From positions 64,001 to 128,000 of the forward strand of contig JBMNFY010000007.1 in the NCBI GenBank assembly GCA_050949565.1: a stretch of DNA of 64,000 nucleotides. The letters run 5' to 3'. Under the pieces are notes generated by a model. That model saw only the letters and a list, made by a program, of their open reading frames with translations, did no database searches and was not told the DNA's origin. The position numbers and the translations under genes are program-made. Positions 12,255-51,981 of the stretch are shown here, one piece after another (position 1 is the first letter of the stretch; every line of letters begins with the position of its first letter). The stretch comes from Kiritimatiellia bacterium. GTDB taxonomy: Bacteria > Verrucomicrobiota > Kiritimatiellia > RFP12 > UBA1067.

Positions 12255-12405
12255 GGGCTCTTATCACACGAAGGCACCAAGGACACAAAGGTTTTCCCAT
12301 AACACCCTACACCCCTTAGTGCCTTTGTGCCCTTCGTGTGAGAAACAACTTGTTTTTTATCGCGCTTGTTGAGCCTTACAGCCTCACAGCCTTACGGCCT
12401 GACAA
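12255..12405. repeat. Inverted pair of 9-mer arrays (CACGAAGGC type) plus heptamer array
   Basis: tcacacgaaggcaccaaggacacaaagg ... ccttagtgcctttgtgcccttcgtgtgaga; then ttacagc ctcacagc cttacggc. Confidence 0.75.
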
Positions 12406-16097: not shown

Positions 16098-16817
16098 TTA
16101 AAGAAGGTGCTGACCACCGTCGACAAACAGGATCTGACCTGTGGTGGATTCGGCTTCCAGCAGAAAACGTACGGCGGCGGCGACCTGACAAACCGTAGGG
16201 CGCACCGACAACGGAAATTCACCGGCTGCTTCACGCGCAGCCGTGTCTGTCGGCGGCAGAACGGCGCCGGGCGCCACTGCGTTGACGCGCAGGCGCGGCG
16301 CGAAGGCCAGCGCCGCAGAGAGCGTGTACGCTTCAAGCGCTTTCTTTGAGACAAGGTAGGGGACAGCCATCGCGTCGGGCTGCGTGATGCGCTGGTCGAG
16401 CAGATTCACGGCGCAACCGACGGCGTCACGCCGCTTCAGATGGTCGGCGAGCCGCTGCGTCAGCATCATCGGCGCGAGTGCGTTGACGCGCCACTGGTGG
16501 TCGAAGTCGGCGGCTGTCGCGTCTGCCAGCGGCTGACGCGCGAACACTGCGGCGTTGTTGACGAGCGCGTCGATACGACCGGCCTGCGCGAGCGCGGCTG
16601 CGAACACCGCGTCCGGACCGCCCACCGCCGCGAGGTCGCCCGCAACGCGCCAGGCCCGTGCACCGGTGTCGGCAGTCAGCGCAGCGCACAACGCATCGGC
16701 CTCCGCCGTCGCGCGGTGCGCGTGGACGACGACATTCCAGCCTGTGCGGGCCAGCGTTTCTGCGATGCCCCGTCCGATACGACGTGCAGCGCCCGTGATG
16801 AGAATAGTCTGCTTCAT
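16098..16817 (-). CDS. SDR oxidoreductase, pteridine reductase/FolM-like
   Basis: ITGAARRIG, NNAAVF, YLVSK, RVNAVAPG, VDGG. Confidence 0.85.
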   Translation of the reverse strand: MKQTILITGAARRIGRGIAETLARTGWNVVVHAHRATAEADALCAALTADTGARAWRVAGDLAAVGGPDAVFAAALAQAGRIDALVNNAAVFARQPLADATAADFDHQWRVNALAPMMLTQRLADHLKRRDAVGCAVNLLDQRITQPDAMAVPYLVSKKALEAYTLSAALAFAPRLRVNAVAPGAVLPPTDTAAREAAGEFPLSVRPTVCQVAAAVRFLLEAESTTGQILFVDGGQHLL

Positions 16818-16857
16818 GGGATTGACAACTGTCACGGAGCATCATACCTTAATCGCA

Positions 16858-17769
16858 ATGCCCAGTCATGTCAAAAGCGTCAATATGAATGTCGCCGAGC
16901 GCGACTTCAAGTACTATATCTTCGATTGGGACGACAATATCCTGCACATGCCTACGCGCATTCACCTTGAGAAACGTCAGCCCGACGGCTCTTGGCGGCC
17001 GCACAGTGTCTCGACTGCAGCGTTCGCAGTGGTGCGCAATGACCACGAAAATTACCGGCCGCCGGACGGTGTGTGGGAGAATGCCTTTGTCGAATTTCAG
17101 GACACGGCGGGCGAGAGCGAGAGCCGCTTCTTGCACGATACGCGGATCTCGTTGGAGCGGGTCATGGCGGGCGAGATTGCGCCCGGCCCCAGTTTTGAAA
17201 CGCTGCGCGAAACGCTGCGCGAGGGACGGCTGTTTGCAATCGTCACAGCCCGCGGTCATGAGTCGGAGTCGCTCAAGAAAGCGGTGCGCCTCTTTATCGA
17301 TGTGGTGCTGACCGACGCTGAGCGTGAAGAGATGATGGCGAACCTCCGGGGCTACCGCGCCTGTTTTGACGGATGTACGACATTCGGCACGGACGAGGAA
17401 GAGCTGACCTACTACCTGAATCTCAACCGCTACCACGCGGTGACGAACCCCTCGTTCAAACGCTGGATGGCCGCAGCGACAGAGGGCGGCGCTTCGTCGG
17501 GAGATGCCAAGCCGTTTGCGATCCGCGATTTTGTGGAGCATGTGGTAAAGATTCTGTCGCGGACCGGCGCGGAGTCCCTGCGCCGACCGATCAGCGTGGG
17601 TTTTTCTGATGACGATGCCGGGAACGTGCGTGCCGTCGAGCGTTACATTCAGGAGGAGCTGTCACGGCGCTTTCCCGGCATCAAGTTTTGCGTGTATGAT
17701 ACGTCGGATCCGGCTGTGCCGGACGGTCGCAAGGTGACCGTATCAGGCCAGCTCGATTTCGGCTTTTAA
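16858..17769 (+). CDS. HAD-superfamily-like protein of unknown function
   Basis: FDWDDNI (motif I), IVTARGH (motif II), GFSDDD (motif IV); start 16858 or 16885. Confidence 0.7.
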   Translation: MPSHVKSVNMNVAERDFKYYIFDWDDNILHMPTRIHLEKRQPDGSWRPHSVSTAAFAVVRNDHENYRPPDGVWENAFVEFQDTAGESESRFLHDTRISLERVMAGEIAPGPSFETLRETLREGRLFAIVTARGHESESLKKAVRLFIDVVLTDAEREEMMANLRGYRACFDGCTTFGTDEEELTYYLNLNRYHAVTNPSFKRWMAAATEGGASSGDAKPFAIRDFVEHVVKILSRTGAESLRRPISVGFSDDDAGNVRAVERYIQEELSRRFPGIKFCVYDTSDPAVPDGRKVTVSGQLDFGF

Positions 17770-17786: not shown

Positions 17787-18401
17787 ATGAAAGTGGTCGC
17801 GTTCAATGGAAGTCCGAACCCAGAAGGAAACACGGCTATCCTGCTCATGAAAGTGCTGTCGCGCGTCGCGCGCGCGGGGATCAACACCGAGTTGGTGCAG
17901 GTCGGCGGCAATAAGATTCAAGGATGCATGGCGTGTTACCAGTGCTTCAAGGCCAAGGACAAGTGCTGTGCGATCACCGATGACATCGTCAATGATTGCA
18001 TCGCCAAAATGATCGAGGCGGATGCCATCGTCATGGGTACGCCCACCTATTTCGCGAACATGACGGCTGAGATGAAGGCGTTGATCGACCGTGCGGGATT
18101 GGTGGCGGTCGCCAACGAACAGCTTTTCGCACGCAAAATCGGTGCGGCGGTGGCGGTCAATCGGCGCGGCGGGGCGGTGCATGCGGTTGACGCTATCAAC
18201 CACATGTTTCTGATGACGCGCATGATCGTGCCAGGCTCGATCTATTGGAATTTCGGCGTGGGGATGCGGCCCGGCGATGTGGAGAACGACACCGAGGCGG
18301 TCGAGAACATGCACGATCTGGGTGAAACCATCGTTTGGCTGGTGAAGAGCCTGTGCCGCGGCGATGGACAGGCGGCGGACGCACAAGGGGGGCTCGTATG
18401 A
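17787..18401 (+). CDS. Iron-sulfur flavoprotein / NADPH-dependent FMN reductase family
   Basis: NGSPNPEGNT, C-x2-C-x2-C..C, GTPTYF. Confidence 0.9.
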   Translation: MKVVAFNGSPNPEGNTAILLMKVLSRVARAGINTELVQVGGNKIQGCMACYQCFKAKDKCCAITDDIVNDCIAKMIEADAIVMGTPTYFANMTAEMKALIDRAGLVAVANEQLFARKIGAAVAVNRRGGAVHAVDAINHMFLMTRMIVPGSIYWNFGVGMRPGDVENDTEAVENMHDLGETIVWLVKSLCRGDGQAADAQGGLV

Positions 18402-19165
18402 ATCGCAGATGTACATGGCTGATGGTCGCGGCGCTTGCCGTTTGTGTGTTGGCGCGCGGCGGCGAAGTCGCCTGTCCGGGTGCATATCCGGGGCATTTGC
18501 AAGGGATTGCCCGCGATGACGATGGCAATCTCTACTGGTCGTTCACGACGTTTCTGATCAAGACCGATGCGTCAGGCACCGAGCGCGCGAAGGTGGCGGT
18601 GCCGAACCACTACGGCGATCTGACGTGGCACGACGGCAAAGTTTACGTGGCGGTCAATTACGGTGCGTTCAACAAAGAGCCGGGTAAGGCGAAGTCGTGG
18701 GTCTGCGTGCATGATGCCAACTCGCTCGCGCTGCTCTCCTCGAATGCCGTGCCAGAGGTGGTACACGGCGCGGGCGGCATGGAGTGGCACGATGGCCGCT
18801 TCTTCATTGTCGGCGGACTGCCGGAAACGCATACCGCCAACTACGTCTACGAGTACTCCGAATCGTTTGAGTTCCGGAAGCGTCACGTCATTGAGAGCGG
18901 CTGGACCCATTTGGGCATCCAGACAGTCTGCCGCGCCAACGACGGCACATGGTGGTTCGGCTGCTACGGCAAACCGGCCGTCACGTTGCGCACCGACGAC
19001 TCGTTCCGCTTCCTCGGCAAGCACGCCTTCAACTGCTCGGTGGGTGTTGCGCGTGCGCCGGACAGCGGCGAGTTACTGGTCGCGAAAAACTTCCGCTCCA
19101 AAGAGGACAAGCGCAACACGGCGACTGTGGCGCCAGTCCCGATCAAGACGATCCTCGCGAAATAA
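18398..19165 (+). CDS. Secreted hypothetical protein (beta-propeller-like)
   Basis: Signal peptide; HLQGIA, HYGDLT, HGAGGME blade-like repeats. Confidence 0.65.
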   Translation: MNRRCTWLMVAALAVCVLARGGEVACPGAYPGHLQGIARDDDGNLYWSFTTFLIKTDASGTERAKVAVPNHYGDLTWHDGKVYVAVNYGAFNKEPGKAKSWVCVHDANSLALLSSNAVPEVVHGAGGMEWHDGRFFIVGGLPETHTANYVYEYSESFEFRKRHVIESGWTHLGIQTVCRANDGTWWFGCYGKPAVTLRTDDSFRFLGKHAFNCSVGVARAPDSGELLVAKNFRSKEDKRNTATVAPVPIKTILAK

Positions 19166-19280
19166 ATAATCGGTTGTTTTTAACGCAGAGGCGCAGAGAC
19201 GCAGAGTTTTTCTACGGTGTAGCGGCGGTGCCGCGCCCCGCGCACTCCAGATTGCCGCGGGACAACGTACCTGTTACCCT

Positions 19281-19312
19281 AAAAAGAGCAGTTGAAGTAT
19301 CAACTGCTCTTT
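19281..19312. terminator. Hairpin, likely bidirectional intrinsic terminator
   Basis: AAAGAGCAGTTGA-AGTA-TCAACTGCTCTTT between convergent transcription units. Confidence 0.65.
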
Positions 19313-19628
19313 GGTTTCTGACATGGCTCGGTTTTTCTATCCACAGATGACAGATGACGCAGATTTTTTGGGGGCATGACTCGGGTTTTTCTCACACGAA
19401 GGCACGAAGGTCACGAAGGTTTTGGATGGCGGGTGTCCTCGCCCGCAAAAAGTTGAGGGTGCGTCTAAATATCTGTCCCTTTGTCGCCAAATTCTATCAT
19501 TCTTTGCCTTTCCACTATTCTATTCCCACCAATTAAATTGGGCTGCGGACTCTGCCGCATTAGCACTTGTTGCGACTACACAGTGGATTGCAACGCGAAC
19601 TCCCTACTACAAAGCGCCCCCTGTCAAT

Positions 19629-20087
19629 CTACTCTGCTTCACCTGAATCACTATTCTGAATGCGTTGAATCAAATCAGTAAATGAAGACGCTATCGGCAT
19701 GATCGCACAACTGGGATCGGCTTCTTCATGGAACCACAGTACAATGTCTGGGCTAGTTTTCCCTGCGCCGTAGCGGAAACAAACATAATTTCCCGTTCCG
19801 TCATCAGCAATTGGGAGTAATCCAGCGGGCAGGCGATCACGATAAATATCAAGCAAGAGCAAGACGTTTTCTTTTGTATCGTTTTCCGAAAAACTGATGA
19901 ACGAGTTGATATCAAAAATGCTTCCATCTGGAAGAAGAAGTTCCGAAGGGTTCGGAATCGCCCCGTTGTACCGCCGTAGCCATGCTTTGAAATCTTCGGG
20001 CAGAGACCGCTCTAAAATAGACTCGATGCGAGAAATATCTTGCTCGGTTACCGGCGTTTGCATCAACATCCACTCAAGCTGTTTCAT
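19629..20087 (-). CDS. SMI1/KNR4 (SUKH) immunity protein
   Basis: IESILERSLPEDFKAWL..NG, LLPIADDGTGNYVCF, W.HE, IASSFTDLI. Confidence 0.92.
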   Translation of the reverse strand: MKQLEWMLMQTPVTEQDISRIESILERSLPEDFKAWLRRYNGAIPNPSELLLPDGSIFDINSFISFSENDTKENVLLLLDIYRDRLPAGLLPIADDGTGNYVCFRYGAGKTSPDIVLWFHEEADPSCAIMPIASSFTDLIQRIQNSDSGEAE

Positions 20088-21097
20088 GATTGAATTCCTT
20101 CCGTCGAATCGGTTTTTTTGAGGAGATCGCTTAAAGCTTGGTCATTAGCTGTCCGCACTGAGTCTAACTGTTGCCAGCGTGCTTTCGATTCAGCTTCCCG
20201 GCAGATTTGCTCTTGGATTTGCAACTGTTGCAAGCGATAACTCTCCCAACAGTAATCTACGAGAGCGCGCGTAGCCGCATAAGACAAGGTCGCCCCCCAG
20301 GTAGCCGGGCTTCCATAAAGAATCCGAATGCCATGAAACCAGCCGGGCGGCGGGGCTGCGGCCTGAGGAAGTAGTTTCGCTATGAGATATTCTGTGCTGA
20401 ATGCAGCTGTACCGCCCGCAACTGCTCGGGTTGTCGCCTGCGCAAAATGGTCAACATCCAATTCGCCATCGGCTAGCAACCCCGCCGAACTGGCGGCAAT
20501 GTCAAAGACCGCAACAGAACCCCATCGTAAAGCAGTCAAACGTAAGGCGCGTTTACTGTCGAATTGACCCCACGTCTTCGCGCCGCCTACATGATCAGTA
20601 GAATGTTCGTTTTTATCCACGAGTTGCATTCGGCCCCCTTTCCCATCGTGGTGCCATGCTTTTCCCCGCGGGGTTTTGCGTTGCTTTAGTATTAGTAGTT
20701 GAATGTCTTCCTCGGTAAGTTTAAGTTTCTTTATCAAATCTGGATTCTTCTTGCATGCTTCTAGGAGCTTCTCACTGCAGTGTTTTGCGTAGGAAGAACT
20801 GCGATATTGGGAAGGCTCTAGTTGAACATCAAACTGTGATTTGAACTTTGGAAATCCCCGCCAATCATAGTGAACTCCAGTGCGAGCATCAACTGTGTTT
20901 GCAAGCTTATGTAATTTTTGATAGTTCGCATTACTCAAGAAGTCGCTACGCAACAAAAAGGAACGTCCGTATGGCGCAAGGGTACCCGAAGACGACAATG
21001 CGTCTGATGCCGTAGAAGGGTCTGATGCATCCGCATAAGTAATTGAAAATGAGGTGCAAAGCACCACCAGAGCAAGTAAAACCTTAGAAGTCATCAA
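20084..21097 (-). CDS. Signal-peptide protein with WHH/colicin-DNase-type HNH nuclease and C-terminal hydrophobic helices
   Basis: TGVHYDWRGFPKF..TPRGKAWHHDGKGGRMQLVDKNEHSTDHVGGAKTWG; N-terminal LLALVVLCTSFSITYA. Confidence 0.85.
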   Translation of the reverse strand: MMTSKVLLALVVLCTSFSITYADASDPSTASDALSSSGTLAPYGRSFLLRSDFLSNANYQKLHKLANTVDARTGVHYDWRGFPKFKSQFDVQLEPSQYRSSSYAKHCSEKLLEACKKNPDLIKKLKLTEEDIQLLILKQRKTPRGKAWHHDGKGGRMQLVDKNEHSTDHVGGAKTWGQFDSKRALRLTALRWGSVAVFDIAASSAGLLADGELDVDHFAQATTRAVAGGTAAFSTEYLIAKLLPQAAAPPPGWFHGIRILYGSPATWGATLSYAATRALVDYCWESYRLQQLQIQEQICREAESKARWQQLDSVRTANDQALSDLLKKTDSTEGIQS

Positions 21098-22094
21098 GGG
21101 TTTTCCTTTTTTCTAAATTGCGTATTGCTTGATATCGCACCCGCTCTTTAGATTTGAGGGCATCGATACTGTCATAAAGCTCATAAAGCCTTTTTGTTAT
21201 TTCCCTTGAGAGCGAAGGTTCGGCAACAAGCGACACGTTTACCTCGCTCAGCCGCCTGTAAAGCTCCATTGCTTTGGCTTCATCCAACTTACGCGACACA
21301 TTCATTGGATCAGTTTCTCTATAAAGACCTTCGGCCCAGAGTGTATACTTGAGGCGCTGCCTTTCCCTCAGTACGGAAGCGGCATGACCTAGGTGAGCCA
21401 TTGCGGCCTCCCATTTCTCGCGAGCAGTTCCGGTTGCATCAGGAGAAAGAGACATCAGAATCTGACGTGCGGATTCGCACTCCTGAAGGCAGGTGCTTAA
21501 AAGTCCGTTTGCTTTGGCGTTTTCAATAATTGAGAGATTTTCTTTTTTTGCCTTTTCTACAGCCGAATTGATAATTACGATGGCCTTTTCAATTGAGTCC
21601 AGTGTTGTTGAAGCAGCGACAGTCGAAGACTCCTGATGATTTGAATCCGCCCTGTTTGCGTCATTGTCATCAGACAAGTTTGATTCCGTCTCAATTGTTT
21701 TAACGAGTTCTAAAGCCCATCTTTGGTCTTCAGCAGATAGCCACCCGAAGGGGATAGCCTGAATAATCGACAGCGCGTCAAGCTGAATGGCTTCACGCAT
21801 GAACGGGCTCACATCTTTATCAGGTACAGAGGCGATGCGTTTACGCGCAAGCTCAATCATCTGCTGGGCATGCTTTCGCTTTTCCACTTCATACTTCGCA
21901 TCAGTAATGAGGGCCTGGATGACTTGCTTGTCAACATCCTTGTTAGGATTCGCCAACAAGGCTTCCAGACGTACAATTCTGTCCTGCGGCGAGAGCGTGT
22001 GGTTGTTCCGAATTTCGGATAATGTGTCCGCCCTTGCAGAAAAAACCGTCAGCAGCCCCCCGAATGATAAAATTGAAAGGATTATGGTTCTCAT
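21084..22094 (-). CDS. Secreted alpha-helical hypothetical protein
   Basis: Signal peptide ending ARA; helical/coiled-coil composition; overlaps both neighbours. Confidence 0.75.
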   Translation of the reverse strand: MRTIILSILSFGGLLTVFSARADTLSEIRNNHTLSPQDRIVRLEALLANPNKDVDKQVIQALITDAKYEVEKRKHAQQMIELARKRIASVPDKDVSPFMREAIQLDALSIIQAIPFGWLSAEDQRWALELVKTIETESNLSDDNDANRADSNHQESSTVAASTTLDSIEKAIVIINSAVEKAKKENLSIIENAKANGLLSTCLQECESARQILMSLSPDATGTAREKWEAAMAHLGHAASVLRERQRLKYTLWAEGLYRETDPMNVSRKLDEAKAMELYRRLSEVNVSLVAEPSLSREITKRLYELYDSIDALKSKERVRYQAIRNLEKRKTLDDF

Positions 22095-23197
22095 TTCAAA
22101 GGCCCGAATGTTTCAAAAGCAACGAAACTTTTGTCTGCGACATCATCGGCCGATGCCTTACCGATGAATGCCCAGCTCTTGCCATCAATCTTGCCAATTT
22201 TTGACGAGAAAACTAAGGCGTCTCGACGAACGCGGTTTTTCTTGTAAATAAGCACTTCCGTACCATCGCCTGTATTCTTGAGAACGGTAATGATCGGAAT
22301 TTTAACGTTGATGTCTGTTGTAAGCGCAAAAGGAGCCTCCTTCCGAAATGGATACTCATTGGCACCTTGTTTGAGCACGACATAATACTTCGCACTGTCA
22401 ACCTTCTTCCCGCCTTTCAAAGCCGCTGCCTGACTCAGGTGGATGCTTCGAATCCGCACAATATACCTCTCGCCAAGCGCTAAATTTCCCTGCTCAACCG
22501 GGGTCTTCGCTTCGCGAAGTCGAAACGCTACGGACGCTGTATGTTTTTCTCCTAGATTAGTCTCGTCGTAATCAAGCCTGCCGTTAAGCGGGAACTCTTC
22601 ACTTTCCGGACATTTCATCTCAAATACAATCCGATCATTGGCTGACAACGCTCCGGTCGCGGTACCCGCAGCAATTCCTGTGCAACCTCCAATGACCGCA
22701 CCGATGAGTGCCCCAGCAGGAGCACCCAGCCCTCCAGTAAAGACTCCGGCAGCTATGCCACCGATGAGAGCTCCTACGCCTATTAATCCCACGACACCAA
22801 TTCTGCCAGCCGTTGCCGATGCCTCAACTTCTTCAGAGATCTCAACTTTTTTATCGGAAAAAAACACATTGATGCTGATCGTGTTCCCTTTTTCCCACAG
22901 CAATGCGGGCATCGCGTCATGCGTTGCCGGCCATTCAAAAACAGTCTGATTTCTGCGTACCTTTTTCTTCGGTGATGTCCACACAGGCACCCCATCGCTT
23001 TTGATGACAAGATAAACGTACGTGCTAGACAGTATAGCTAGGTGTTTTTTGGAAGCCTTTTCCTGAAAATAACGCGGCATCGTTATTGATTGCAGTTGCG
23101 TTGCGTACAGTTTTGCACCTTCGGCTTGCTCCGCCGCATAAGCGCCTAGAGACACCACGAGGCTAAGAATGATGGTCGTCAGCAGGGTTCTGGACAT
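22091..23197 (-). CDS. Secreted protein with central glycine-zipper hairpin
   Basis: Signal peptide ending AYA; GALIGGIAAGVFTGGLGAPAGALIGAVIGGCTGIAAG; GAGGAG RBS. Confidence 0.75.
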   Translation of the reverse strand: MSRTLLTTIILSLVVSLGAYAAEQAEGAKLYATQLQSITMPRYFQEKASKKHLAILSSTYVYLVIKSDGVPVWTSPKKKVRRNQTVFEWPATHDAMPALLWEKGNTISINVFFSDKKVEISEEVEASATAGRIGVVGLIGVGALIGGIAAGVFTGGLGAPAGALIGAVIGGCTGIAAGTATGALSANDRIVFEMKCPESEEFPLNGRLDYDETNLGEKHTASVAFRLREAKTPVEQGNLALGERYIVRIRSIHLSQAAALKGGKKVDSAKYYVVLKQGANEYPFRKEAPFALTTDINVKIPIITVLKNTGDGTEVLIYKKNRVRRDALVFSSKIGKIDGKSWAFIGKASADDVADKSFVAFETFGPLK

Positions 23198-23296
23198 GTC
23201 TTTCTCCTCTATCGCTTGTTAAACGGTGTGTTGGGTTCAATTTCGCGCACACGCGACATCAACCCAAAATTTTCCTCAAAACTCCTAACTTCTGGA

Positions 23297-23326
23297 ATAG
23301 TATTGTTTTCATTGAGGGCTTGTCAA
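23297..23326 (-). promoter_or_regulatory. Sigma70-like promoter of the toxin operon
   Basis: Minus strand TTGACA-18 bp-TACTAT. Confidence 0.55.
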
Positions 23327-23487
23327 ACGCTGTTTTCAATCGTGGCGCGATCATGATCGATTAGTAACAGGGGCATGCGAGTCGAGTGCGCGTTTTGTTG
23401 CGCAGTCGGGGGCAATGCCCTCAAAAAAACCTTTGTGCCCTTTGTGCCTTTGTGTGAGATTGGCACGCCTCGCGAAATAGGCGCGCG

Positions 23488-24297
23488 TTACGCGTCTTCG
23501 AGGGCGACCGGGTTGGTGAGTTCACCGATGCCGTCGATAGCGACGGTCACGGTGTCGCCCGCCGCGAGATAAAGCGGCGGTATGCGCGAGAAGCCAGCCC
23601 CGGCAGGGGTGCCGGTGAAGATCGCCGTGCCGGCCGGCAACGTGGTGCTGCCGCTCAGGAAGACGATCAGGTCGACCACGCTGAAGATGTGGTCCGCCGT
23701 GTTGGAGCATTGGCGCAGGTCGCCGTTGACCCAAGCCTTCAGGGCGAGGTTCTGTGGATCGGGAATCTCGTCGCGGGTGACGATCACGGGGCCGAGCGGC
23801 GCGAAGGTATCGAAGGATTTGCCGCGGCACCACTGATTACCGCCAAAGCTCTTTTGCCAGTCGCGCGCCGTGACGTCATTGCCGCAGGTGTAGCCCAGCA
23901 CATAATCAAGTGCATTGTCAGGCGTGGCATTCTTACACGGCTTGCCGAGAATCACGACCAACTCGGCCTCATAGTCCACTTGGGTGCTGGGCAGATGCGT
24001 GGGGATGAGGATCGGATCGCCGGGGTGCTGCACGCTCCACGGGCTTTTCATGAAGAGCACCGGATGCTCCGGAATCGGCTGCCGCGTCTCGTGGGCGTGG
24101 GCGCGGAAGTTGAGGCCGATCGCCAAGATGACGGGCGGCTGGAGCGGGGCGAGCAGCTTGGCGACGCGCTCGCGGCGTCCGCTGGGCTGCCAAGATCCGA
24201 AGAGGTCGCCGATGATCGGCTCGGCCGAGCCGTCGGGATGGAGGATGCCGGTCTGCGGTTCGGCGCAGGTGTCTGTCAGGAAGCGAATGATTTTCAT
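23488..24297 (-). CDS. Fumarylacetoacetate hydrolase family protein
   Basis: IGLNF, LFMK, DYEAEL, GNDVTARD, GKSFDTFAPLGP, TGTP. Confidence 0.92.
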   Translation of the reverse strand: MKIIRFLTDTCAEPQTGILHPDGSAEPIIGDLFGSWQPSGRRERVAKLLAPLQPPVILAIGLNFRAHAHETRQPIPEHPVLFMKSPWSVQHPGDPILIPTHLPSTQVDYEAELVVILGKPCKNATPDNALDYVLGYTCGNDVTARDWQKSFGGNQWCRGKSFDTFAPLGPVIVTRDEIPDPQNLALKAWVNGDLRQCSNTADHIFSVVDLIVFLSGSTTLPAGTAIFTGTPAGAGFSRIPPLYLAAGDTVTVAIDGIGELTNPVALEDA

Positions 24298-25424
24298 GCG
24301 GGTATCGTAGCAGGTTTTTCTAGAATCGTGTCAAGCAGGGACGAGACGTCATCCGCCGTGACGGGGCGGGGATTGGCGGCGGTCGAACCCGAGGCGAGCG
24401 TCTCGCGGATGAAGGCCTCGCGGTCGGCCACCTGTTGGCCGGCAAAGGGATTTTTCAGTTCCATCGCCGTCATCCAAGCGGCGATCTGCGCTTCCACGTC
24501 CAGCCCGTGCTGTGATTTAAGCGTGTTGAGATCGCGAGCCACGGCTTTCCGGTTGAAGGCAAGACAGGCTGGCAGGCAGCAAGCGCAGACCAGCCCGTGC
24601 GCGACGTTGAAGCGCACGCCCAGCGGGTGAGCGAGACCGTGGATGATGCCCAGGCGCGCGTGCGACAGCGCGACGCCCGCCAGATAACTCGCCTCCAGCA
24701 TCTCGCCTGCCAGATCGCTGTTGCCTTGATAGAACGGCAGCAACGCGCGTGCAATGCGTGTCAAGGCCAGTTCCGAGAGCGCCCGCGTGAAGGGCGTGGC
24801 GTGCAGGCTGGTGTAGGACTCAAAGGCCTGCACGAAGGCGTCGAATCCCGCCGCCGCGCGCGTGTTCGACGGACAGCACCGGAGCAGGCAGGGGTCGAGG
24901 ATCACCAGACGCGGCATGTAGGAGGGATGGCGGATCGATTGTTTCACGGTTCGCGACGGGTCGGTCAGCACCGACACCACCGTAGCTTCCGCGCCGGTAC
25001 CGGCGGTGGTGGGCGCCGCGATCAGTGGCAGTGCCGCCGGGGGAATCGACGCCGGATGCATCTGGTAAAACGCGGTGTTTTCCGGCGCGTCCAGCAGTCC
25101 CGCCGCCGCCTTGGCCAGATCGATCACACTGCCGCCGCCGACTGCCGCCACCCAATCGGGACGGTCGGCTTTCAGATCGGCGCGCAGTGCATCGACCGCG
25201 TCGACGGTCGGTTCGTTACCGGCATGGCGCCAAGCGCGAACTCGCATGCCGAACGGTGGCTCGTTTAAGATCGCGTCCAGTAGCTCGGAGCGTTGCAACG
25301 AACAACCGTGAACCAATACACCGCTCGAACCGAACTCAGCGGCAAGGTTGGTGAGGCGCAACACCGCGCCTTCAGCGGCGACGGTCCGTTGCGGCAGGAG
25401 CAGGGATGCGGGCAAAAGATTCAT
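24294..25424 (-). CDS. Iron-containing alcohol dehydrogenase
   Basis: VGGGSVIDLAK, PTTAGTGAE, GIIHGLAH..HG. Confidence 0.9.
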   Translation of the reverse strand: MNLLPASLLLPQRTVAAEGAVLRLTNLAAEFGSSGVLVHGCSLQRSELLDAILNEPPFGMRVRAWRHAGNEPTVDAVDALRADLKADRPDWVAAVGGGSVIDLAKAAAGLLDAPENTAFYQMHPASIPPAALPLIAAPTTAGTGAEATVVSVLTDPSRTVKQSIRHPSYMPRLVILDPCLLRCCPSNTRAAAGFDAFVQAFESYTSLHATPFTRALSELALTRIARALLPFYQGNSDLAGEMLEASYLAGVALSHARLGIIHGLAHPLGVRFNVAHGLVCACCLPACLAFNRKAVARDLNTLKSQHGLDVEAQIAAWMTAMELKNPFAGQQVADREAFIRETLASGSTAANPRPVTADDVSSLLDTILEKPATIPA

Positions 25425-25465
25425 AAGGATTTTCTCTGAAGATAAAGATGTGGGTACGGGTAGAC

Positions 25466-25819
25466 TCAGGCAACCTGCACGATGATGGCGGCGATGACCA
25501 GCGGTTCGCTGCCGGTGTTTTCGACGCCGTGTGAAGCGCCCTTGCCGGTCAGGATCGCGTCGCCGGGCTGGATGGGCACCCATTTGCCCTGCTCTTCGAT
25601 AAGTCCGCTGCCGGAGAGAACCAGATAGATCTCGTCCTCGCCGTCGTGCGTGTGGCTGCCGATAGAGCCGCCGGGCTCAATCGTCAAGCGTGCGCAAAGT
25701 CGCGCCTTGGCACTGAACGCTTCGGGCTTGAACCAGTGCTCGACCTTAACCGTACCTTTGCCACCGCGCATGTTTGGACGGAGTTCCATTTGAAGCGCAT
25801 CATTTCTCGCAATCATCAC
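25466..25819 (-). CDS. Cupin-domain protein
   Basis: SIGSHTHDGEDEIY, GASHGVEN; GAGGAGG RBS. Confidence 0.88.
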   Translation of the reverse strand: MMIARNDALQMELRPNMRGGKGTVKVEHWFKPEAFSAKARLCARLTIEPGGSIGSHTHDGEDEIYLVLSGSGLIEEQGKWVPIQPGDAILTGKGASHGVENTGSEPLVIAAIIVQVA

Positions 25820-51904: not shown

Positions 51905-51981
51905 GGGGGATTAGCTCAGTTGGTTAGAGCACTTGCTTGACATGCAAGGGGTCGGTGGTTCGAGTCCACTATCTCCCACCA
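51905..51981 (+). tRNA. tRNA-Val(GAC)
   Basis: Acceptor stem GGGGGAT/ATCTCCC, anticodon arm CTTGC-TTGACAT-GCAAG, GTTCGAG T-loop, encoded CCA. Confidence 0.97.

Follow-up and report, generated by a model that had tools for sequence, protein, structure and literature searches.

The locus described here raises the question of how nuclease toxins exported through the Sec pathway may leave producers with two membranes (diderms), and then cross the two membranes of a target, without Rhs, CDI, type VI secretion system (T6SS) or colicin domains. We analysed a 64,000-nucleotide stretch of contig JBMNFY010000007.1 from a Kiritimatiellia bacterium (hereafter, the window), in which four genes, A, B, C and D, arranged head to tail within 3.6 kb, offer a compact candidate answer. 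We read these genes, at what we would call an even chance, as an interbacterial nuclease toxin-immunity cassette in which B would act as a dedicated chaperone or adaptor of the nuclease C and A as its membrane-inserting partner, with no known carrier or secretion apparatus. An earlier reading of the same DNA from its letters (the sequence-only reading) had proposed a secreted tripartite toxin, in which A and B deliver the nuclease and D provides immunity. The genes, and the nuclease domain at the centre of the proposal, are the following.

22091-23197, minus strand: gene A, open reading frame (ORF) of 368 residues
21084-22094, minus strand: gene B, ORF of 336 residues
20084-21097, minus strand: gene C, ORF of 337 residues from a TTG start, or 336 residues from the ATG at 21094, which is the start chosen in one public gene call
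19629-20087, minus strand: gene D, ORF of 152 residues
20564-20869, minus strand: WHH/Colicin-DNase nuclease domain of C, residues 77-178, with both Pfam profiles above cut-off

The genes overlap by 4 nt (ATGA) between A and B, by 11-14 nt between B and C, and by 4 nt (ATGA) between C and D, and purine-rich stretches resembling Shine-Dalgarno sequences lie upstream of their starts, including an AGGAG before the ATG of gene A, indicating that the four genes are translationally coupled. The sequence-only reading had described four overlapping genes of lower GC content, and both points agree with our data, with overlaps of 4-14 nt and a GC content of 0.44-0.53 over approximately 19250-23400, against 0.57-0.68 in the flanks.

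A predicted exported nuclease with an immunity-type partner

Protein C matched the Pfam families Colicin-DNase (PF12639; E 3.5e-15, 57 bits against a cut-off of 25, residues 77-170) and WHH (PF14414; E 2.2e-7, 30.9 bits against a cut-off of 25.1). By sequence, it is a nuclease of the WHH/colicin-DNase family, and would be expected to cleave DNA. In an alignment of 12 family members, extending down to 28% identity, residues H149, H150, H165, H169, G171 and G172 of C were invariant in all 12 sequences, short variants included, and the tryptophan of the WHH motif was replaced by valine in three. Passages of PMC3113570 assign metal binding, and catalysis or water activation, to the HH dyad and two later histidines of the WHH family. 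Profile searches of C against the Protein Data Bank (PDB) yielded weak matches only, to the Rhs nuclease 8bd1 (E 0.14) and to colicin E7 (E 0.3-0.6).

The order of elements in C is a Sec-type N-terminus, a conserved RPxLLRSDxLS motif, the nuclease domain, a helical module rich in alanine and glycine, and an amphipathic helix. Thus, the nuclease domain occupies the N-terminal half of the protein (residues 77-178 of 337). We could not find Rhs, CDI, LXG or PAAR domains in C in searches of Pfam, as the sequence-only reading had supposed in seeing no carrier; its comparison with toxins that place the nuclease as a C-terminal cargo does not hold for C, in which it is the conserved, reusable module that is C-terminal.

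Signal peptides were predicted for A, B and C by the sequence-only reading, and we arrived at the same assignment, judged by eye and from hydropathy, with candidate cleavage motifs of AYA/A in A, ARA/D in B and TYA/D in C. An N-terminal hydrophobic region was identified in 16 of 16 homologues of C, 24 of 25 of B and 14 of 21 of A, and those homologues of A that lacked it were mostly shortened or extended gene calls, with two falling just below the threshold. None of the three signal peptides contains a lipobox. The 12 aligned C proteins share no conserved cysteine at the end of the signal peptide, and Cys 14 of C itself is not conserved.

Protein D matched SMI1_KNR4 (PF09346; E 6.7e-24, 85.3 bits against a cut-off of 25.4), and also SUKH_6 and SUKH_5, so that the family assignments of the sequence-only reading for both C and D lie above the Pfam cut-offs. 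Neither a signal peptide nor an N-terminal hydrophobic region was identified in D. On this evidence D is an immunity-type protein of the SUKH/SMI1_KNR4 group, which would neutralise C. A gene of the same type was found downstream of C in all six of the loci that carry the long form of the cassette, described below, with a Pfam match in L004, L006 and L014. SUKH proteins encoded beside WHH nucleases are described as toxin immunity proteins in passages of PMC3113570.

We additionally compared the cassette with phage records, which matched the nuclease domain only, and no other part. The nearest phage relative of the domain is the C-terminal end of a 293-residue HNH protein of SPbeta-like phages (L038, from Bacillus phage BUCT083, positions 74744-78582 of the record). 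In BUCT083 the gene for this protein lies between two SMI1/KNR4 genes, and adjoins a YobL-type toxin gene.

Co-inheritance of A, B and C

The families of the three exported proteins are small and of similar size, with 21 sequences of A, 16 of C and 26 of B (the B of the window counted). We examined 13 related loci, and identified A-B-C-D in the same order at six (L004, L005, L006, L013, L014 and L015), which represent four distinct loci, since the pairs L004/L005 and L014/L015 give near-identical scores. The records are labelled as metagenome-assembled genomes of Hydrogenedentota and Bacteroidota, and their A proteins are 39-60% identical to that of the window. A-B-C without D was identified at three further loci; L007 and L018 are cut off by contig ends, and the last two, L016 and L017, hold only an A-like module, described below. 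In more divergent loci, the triad A-B-C was retained at 27-40% identity.

In a sample of 401 genomes from the phylum of the window, which are incomplete, the profiles of A (E < 1e-12), B and the C-terminal module of C matched the same five genomes (G000, G037, G073, G277 and G382). Further weak single matches were to the zipper region of A only (4.5e-5 and 4.3e-4) and to the C module (3.8e-4), and the 17 genomes of the sample that belong to the same family as the window gave no match to the profiles. As judged from these distributions, A and B are tied to the nuclease C. The sequence-only reading had staked its proposal on the upstream genes being conserved together with the nuclease and its immunity gene, and the four distinct A-B-C-D loci, the three additional A-B-C loci and the five shared genomes bear this out.

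We identified a short form of the cassette in three of the five genomes (G277, G037 and G382). In this form, A is reduced to 205-259 residues, comprising one C2-like sandwich and the zipper, and B to 195-198 residues, corresponding to its C-terminal half only, and C remains full length (323-330 residues) with its catalytic histidines intact. The short modules adjoin phage-like replication or recombination genes, or a transposase-like ORF, as judged from the N-termini of the neighbouring ORFs without a family search. At two short-form loci, unrelated lipoprotein-like ORFs of 171 and 168 residues (L023:7601-8116 and L024:7222-7728, with lipobox-like LFAGC and LFSAC motifs, respectively, and no family assignment) lie directly after A-B-C.

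The accessory proteins and how the cassette may work

The features of the accessory apparatus are as follows.

20087-20551, minus strand: conserved C-terminal module of C, residues 183-337, C-terminal in the full-length profile matches
20111-20191, minus strand: predicted B-binding helix of C, residues 303-329, from the complex model
21330-21626, minus strand: three-helix bundle of B, residues 157-255, the predicted dock for the C-terminal helix of C
22643-22843, minus strand: glycine-zipper insertion of A, residues ~119-185, formed of a pair of hydrophobic segments of membrane length that flank an invariant G-x-x-x-P-x-G turn

The C-terminal region of C is a conserved stretch of 155 residues, rich in alanine, glycine, serine and threonine, that ends in the amphipathic helix. 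A profile of residues 183-337, searched against 1.84 billion representative sequences, matched 37 proteins at E ≤ 1e-3, 32 of them at E ≤ 1e-10, and in the full-length matches the module was C-terminal. We sorted the N-terminal regions of the 37 proteins with a local hidden Markov model of the nuclease part. Twenty had a WHH-like N-terminal part, two were enlarged versions (P0069 and P0073), eight were fragments, and one (P0099) was a weak, repetitive match. In the remaining six (P0085, P0088, P0089, P0091, P0093 and P0095), the N-terminal region is of two further kinds, which resemble neither A nor B nor the nuclease, and four of these six have Sec-type N-termini. This arrangement is suggestive of a C-terminal module that serves as a system-specific handle, and an N-terminal region that is an exchangeable payload. 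The polarity of the scaffold, with a variable N-terminus and a constant C-terminus, is, as far as the sequences go, the reverse of that in classical polymorphic toxins. If the module is indeed a portable handle, the cassette would represent a new polymorphic toxin architecture of opposite polarity, and the module would provide a search key for further toxins. Matches of the C module in the ESM Atlas, which were to clusters without a name, a cluster of pore-forming colicins and a glycine-zipper cluster, scored 0.86-0.88, all below the bar of 0.9, and were not used.

The sequence-only reading had described B as helical, and the model of B is all-alpha, with a mean predicted local distance difference test (pLDDT) score of 88.6 and two helical domains following the Sec-type N-terminus. 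No Pfam family matched B above its cut-off, NCBIfam, PHROGs and PADLOC gave nothing above noise, and Foldseek searches of the model against the PDB gave no match with E ≤ 0.001. A fold family was sought with VIA-align, which returned generic three-helix bundles only (residues 157-250, Z 9-11), under the bar of ~13 for helical folds, and was rejected. In the ESM Atlas, the best feature score of B was 0.80 and all structural template modelling (TM) scores were below 0.5, and these were likewise not used.

We modelled mature B together with mature C from alignments that we had built ourselves, so that the calibration of the score is only rough. The complex gave an interaction prediction score from aligned errors (ipSAE) of 0.65 (0.65, 0.61 and 0.69 across runs), against 0.00 for the best of three controls; 58 of 80 solved complexes attained the mark of the B-C model, as did 2 of 110 mismatched pairs. 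Contacts agreed by at least 95% between runs, with partner pLDDT values of 66-73. The interface joins residues 172-188, 234-255 and 291-295 of B with residues 303-329 of C. The contact of lowest error pairs R245 of B with N318 of C, each invariant in its own alignment, and the B interface residues L252 and E255 are nearly invariant to invariant. The interface lies in the C-terminal half of B (~157-336), the only half that the short variants retain. The prediction is thus that the C-terminal helix of C docks on the three-helix bundle of B. We know of no complex that resembles this one, and for that reason the score is unlikely to reflect a structure already known to the predictor, although it remains a model.

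Protein A begins with a Sec-type N-terminus (residues 1-21), followed by a C2-like sandwich (29-118 and 185-232) that surrounds the zipper, and by a second C2 domain (240-368). The glycine zipper noted by the sequence-only reading is evident, and is the most conserved part of the protein: G142, A143, I145, G146, A150, G151, G156, P160, G162, A163, G166 and G170 are invariant in all 21 sequences of A, and Kyte-Doolittle hydropathy reaches 2.3 in a 19-residue window. An AlphaFold2 model built on the 21-sequence alignment had an overall pLDDT of 74.2, with values of 85-95 outside the zipper; the zipper segment, with pLDDT below 50, was left unmodelled. Residues 240-368 aligned by VIA with C2 domains at Z 10.2-10.6, with root-mean-square deviations of 2.5-3.1 over 110-119 residues, and the first sandwich (model range 20-232) gave middling values (Z 8.4-9.2). 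The best Foldseek matches of A (E 9e-8 to 1e-5) were to proteins with tandem C2 domains, among them extended synaptotagmin 2 and BON1. A therefore models as two C2-like beta-sandwiches, and, since the strands on both sides of the zipper (29-114 and 188-231) build one sandwich, the zipper would be an insertion in the first of them. With the zipper inserted as a hairpin, the two sandwich halves would end up on one face of the membrane. The conserved acidic and polar residues D338, D351, D352, D355 and N308 are no more than suggestive of binding to Ca2+ or phospholipid. A bacterial tandem-C2 protein with an inserted glycine zipper would be an unusual membrane partner.

No Pfam family matched A above its cut-off, and NCBIfam, PHROGs and PADLOC again gave nothing above noise, for A as for C. 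A search for viral relatives of the fold in BFVD returned one row, with E 9e-4 but a TM score of 0.11, which is not meaningful. We additionally identified A-like modules, comprising the tandem C2 domains and the zipper, at the C-terminal ends of signal-peptide proteins of 827 and 938 residues (L016:22-2505 and L017:4198-7014, respectively). These large proteins have no match in Pfam, and genes B, C and D are absent from their surroundings, indicating that A-type modules serve in other contexts too. This raises the idea that A and B have a function of their own, for example in membrane stress or lipid handling, and are simply passengers of a WHH/SMI1 toxin-immunity pair, in keeping with the absence of matches between A or B and any toxin-related family. 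We find this very improbable indeed, given the translational coupling of all the genes, the perfect co-occurrence of A, B and the C module in the five genomes, the retention of the triad in divergent loci, and a predicted B-C interface made of invariant residues.

How these parts might work together can be set out from the predicted structures and from known SUKH/WHH pairs. One promoter would drive the four genes, whose coupling is seen in the sequence and whose transcription is hinted at by data given below. A, B and C would be exported by Sec, and D would stay in the cytoplasm, where it would neutralise C molecules that fold ahead of export or arrive from neighbouring cells. The genome encodes an Omp85 protein (199.8 bits) and five secretins above cut-off, indicating a diderm in which Sec export ends in the periplasm. 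There, the three-helix bundle of B is predicted to capture the amphipathic helix of C, and so to keep the helical module of C soluble or oriented. A would be held in a membrane by its zipper hairpin, with both C2 domains on the lipid surface, and might, as its fold and the precedent of a DNase with a glycine zipper suggest, anchor or permeabilise the membrane, such that the B-C complex leaves the producer or crosses the membrane of the target. The WHH DNase would then degrade DNA in cells that lack D.

A bolder version of the same scheme is that A-B-C is a self-contained nuclease delivery machine that dispenses with a secretion system, in which the N-terminal payload is exchangeable, B loads the C-terminal handle, and the zipper hairpin of A drives the toxin through membranes. 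If true, poorly studied phyla would possess an interbacterial weapon of a new class, but we regard this version as rather doubtful.

Several findings weigh against the toxin-immunity reading, or against parts of it. The operon encodes no device for crossing the outer membrane. With a hydropathy of 2.3, the zipper of A is probably caught in the inner membrane of the producer during Sec export, which would fit an envelope-resident complex better than a released one; the free secretion of A as a soluble subunit, implied by the sequence-only reading, is thus probably incorrect. The other N-terminal regions found on the C module gave no match in Pfam or among PDB sequences and no convincing match in PADLOC, leaving payload exchange as suggestive only. 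The C module of this copy contains no classical transmembrane helix (no 19-residue window with Kyte-Doolittle hydropathy ≥ 1.4), and its relatives, with values of 1.1-1.95 in all those checked but one short fragment, are only marginally hydrophobic. The short form has no SMI1 gene within 16 kb, the ORFs just downstream of its C gene match no family, and the 92.7% nucleotide similarity between the G037 and G382 loci ends at the stop codon of C. Thus, the conserved core is A-B-C, and the triad is not strictly bound to the logic of toxin and immunity; the absence of a linked immunity gene is odd for a toxin directed at kin. Finally, one metatranscriptome contained two short contigs, 100% identical to the window and lying inside B and A, at a depth of ~3, which is a weak hint of transcription that carry-over of DNA could explain. 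Both of the runs labelled as RNA leave most of the operon without cover, which is not evidence that it is silent. Of the tripartite toxin of the sequence-only reading, the co-conservation of A and B, the predicted binding of B to C and the lack of a carrier are upheld, and short A-B-C modules without a linked immunity gene speak against it.

Some of the same observations would suit an envelope-resident defence nuclease, in which C, held by B and anchored through A in the inner membrane of the producer, would act in the periplasm to destroy foreign DNA that arrives by phage, conjugation or transformation, with D as a cytoplasmic fail-safe. The zipper of A is hydrophobic enough for a stop-transfer hairpin with both halves of the split C2 domain in the periplasm, and the short modules both lack linked immunity and stand beside phage-like or transposase-like genes. 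A gene for a WYL-WCX regulator (L006:6349-7392) lies ~500 nt upstream of A-B-C-D at one long-form locus, in a metagenome-assembled genome of Hydrogenedentota, and may point in the same direction. Weaker signs are the match of D to the PADLOC candidate PDC-M40A (E 5e-6, over 36 residues only) and of the distant C-module protein P0085 to PDC-M40B (E 2.6e-5). Against these, A, B and C of the window match no PADLOC model at E ≤ 1, the C of the window thus giving no match to PDC-M40B, and the PDC systems are themselves only candidates, with no mention of PDC-M40 in the main text of 10.1101/2024.01.29.577857. We know of no established defence system that acts through a periplasmic DNase, although no search for one was made, and this too counts against defence, as does the description of SUKH proteins beside WHH nucleases as toxin immunity. 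Overall, we judge defence, the main rival of the toxin reading, to be unlikely; if true, it would to our knowledge be the first nuclease defence located in the envelope.

Comparison with known systems places the nuclease and D within known families, and the whole system within no family tested. Polymorphic toxins that pair WHH or colicin-DNase domains with SUKH proteins, as described by Zhang, Iyer and Aravind (2011/2012), share with the cassette the nuclease family, the catalytic residues and an SMI1-type gene immediately downstream, and a Sec signal as the sole trafficking signal corresponds to their type II secretion system ('T2SS') class, as described in parts of PMC3113570 and PMC3482391. 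They differ in that the toxin domain of the cassette is N-terminal to central and not at the extreme C-terminus, that the cassette has a new, conserved C-terminal helical module and no Rhs, FilH, PAAR, LXG or MafB-N scaffold, and that it includes two extra exported proteins and has a short form without immunity.

The sitBAI system of myxobacteria, which is transferred by outer-membrane exchange, has an accessory gene with a type I signal that overlaps the toxin gene by ~11 bp and promotes delivery, and an exported nuclease toxin with a SUKH protein as its antidote, according to passages of PMC5562445. It thus resembles the cassette in its overlapping upstream accessory gene with a type I signal, exported nuclease, downstream SUKH gene and location in mobile DNA. 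In those passages, however, SitA is a lipoprotein with a C-terminal toxin, whereas C has no lipobox and carries its nuclease in the N-terminal half; B, being all-alpha, differs from the beta-barrel predicted for SitB, and no counterpart of A appears. In Agrobacterium Tde1, membrane permeabilisation and prey entry depend on the glycine zipper, and the adaptor binds the same non-catalytic region, as parts of PMC10240207 report. Tde1/Tap1/Tdi1 and the cassette would therefore have in common a DNase, a zipper, an adaptor on the non-catalytic part of the toxin and a cytoplasmic immunity protein, if the roles proposed for the cassette are correct. In the portions of that source, the zipper of Tde1 lies in the toxin itself, which is delivered by a T6SS, whereas in the cassette the zipper belongs to a protein other than the toxin, the Sec-exported tandem-C2 protein A, and T6SS elements are not linked to the cassette.

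The eukaryotic tandem-C2 proteins, such as extended synaptotagmin and the copine BON1, share with A the modelled fold of both domains and their tandem order, but A is bacterial and exported, has the zipper in its first C2 domain, and is only 4-18% identical to them. Nuclease colicin operons are laid out as colicin, immunity protein and lysis protein. The cassette similarly places an immunity gene and a further envelope-active gene beside a colicin-type DNase domain in a small mobile operon, but C has a Sec signal and no receptor-binding or translocation domain (the DNase domain being the only Pfam match in C), and there is no lysis lipoprotein. Full-text searches of open-access papers and bioRxiv returned no study in which a glycine-zipper or C2 partner is combined with a WHH or SUKH system. 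What is new in the cassette is the accessory apparatus of A and B, and the reversed toxin scaffold.

The island, its edges and its expression signals

The features at the edges of the cassette are as follows.

23297-23326, minus strand: sigma-70-like promoter candidate, TTGACA-18 nt-TACTAT, with 10/12 matches, ~100 nt upstream of the ATG of gene A
19283-19312, minus strand: perfect 13-bp hairpin with a weak T tail, a candidate terminator, downstream of gene D
19389-19423, plus strand: left dispersed octamer-run repeat of the CACGAAGG type, at the island edge
23426-23459, minus strand: right copy of the CACGAAGG-type repeat, inverted relative to the left copy and ~88% alike by eye

The TTGACA/TACTAT site that the sequence-only reading had placed ahead of the operon is present, but such sites are not enriched in the region (7 observed, against 4.5 +/- 2.0 in shuffled sequences), and its position alone is therefore in its favour as a promoter. 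The terminator scan passed over the hairpin downstream of D because of its weak T tail.

The cassette is single-copy in its own genome, and is flanked by genes of ordinary metabolism (flavin mononucleotide (FMN) reductase, fumarylacetoacetate (FAA) hydrolase, iron-containing alcohol dehydrogenase and cupin). In a DNA search of positions 17787-25583 against 20 relatives, the flanks were identified in genomes of the same genus at up to 97% identity, and, for six same-genus genomes, the matches listed included none to the interior of the island. In one relative (G404), the left flank is joined to the alcohol dehydrogenase gene, and neither the cassette nor the FAA hydrolase gene is present; in another (G406), the FMN reductase gene is joined to the FAA hydrolase gene, and the cassette is missing along with the gene for a 276-residue exported protein (18335-19165). 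These junctions indicate that 18335-24297 is a variable spot within the genus, and that the cassette is either a recent gain or frequently lost. From its composition and distribution, the cassette is best described as a horizontally acquired, mobile accessory island. Around it we found no integrase, no long direct repeats and no nearby tRNA gene (the only one being at 51905), and plasmid records gave no match to A or the C module. A possible empty site is seen in two contigs, each from a different sequencing run, in which only 21 letters of other sequence separate 19131 from 23468, but the fit on the short side extends over no more than 30-32 letters, so that these contigs were not relied on.

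DNA identical to the cassette was identified in many metagenomes from digesters, bioreactors, wastewater and soil. Of the 24 runs listed, 18 contained at least half of the sampled words, and 12 of them may be the source sample; two metagenome holders that were not flagged as a possible source showed no differences over pieces of up to 2.6 kb. Such habitats are rich in extracellular DNA, and would suit a nutritional or housekeeping nuclease of the periplasm or exterior, used in DNA scavenging or biofilm remodelling and paired with an intracellular inhibitor. Barnase-barstar and NucA-NuiA are precedents for nucleases with such inhibitors, and the combination of an exported nuclease with a cytoplasmic, binding-type partner is compatible with this. 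We nonetheless consider such a role quite improbable: the cassette is patchy in the phylum sample and among the same-genus genomes, it lies in a low-GC island, its domain is of the colicin/WHH toxin type, and its two co-inherited membrane and adaptor partners would be superfluous for a scavenging enzyme.

At lower window coordinates than the variable spot, we noted a 404-residue ORF at 16555-17769, whose N-terminal third is rich in alanine, serine and proline, which matched no Pfam family, and whose listed start is probably too far upstream.

Finally, we identified runs of CACGAAGG-type octamers, followed by runs of T or A, that bracket the island in inverted copies within 19170-19486 and 23363-23462. 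The motif occurs seven times in the window, against 0.19 expected, and dozens of copies of the repeat are present in the genome and its relatives, including tandem arrays on contigs C5 and C18 in which the spacing is 300 nt. The cassette may thus be contained within CACGAAGG-type repeat elements, or may have undergone recombination between them. One further pair in the window, at 12275 and 12322, forms a close hairpin, and in other contigs the two types of arm are found 15-21 nt apart.

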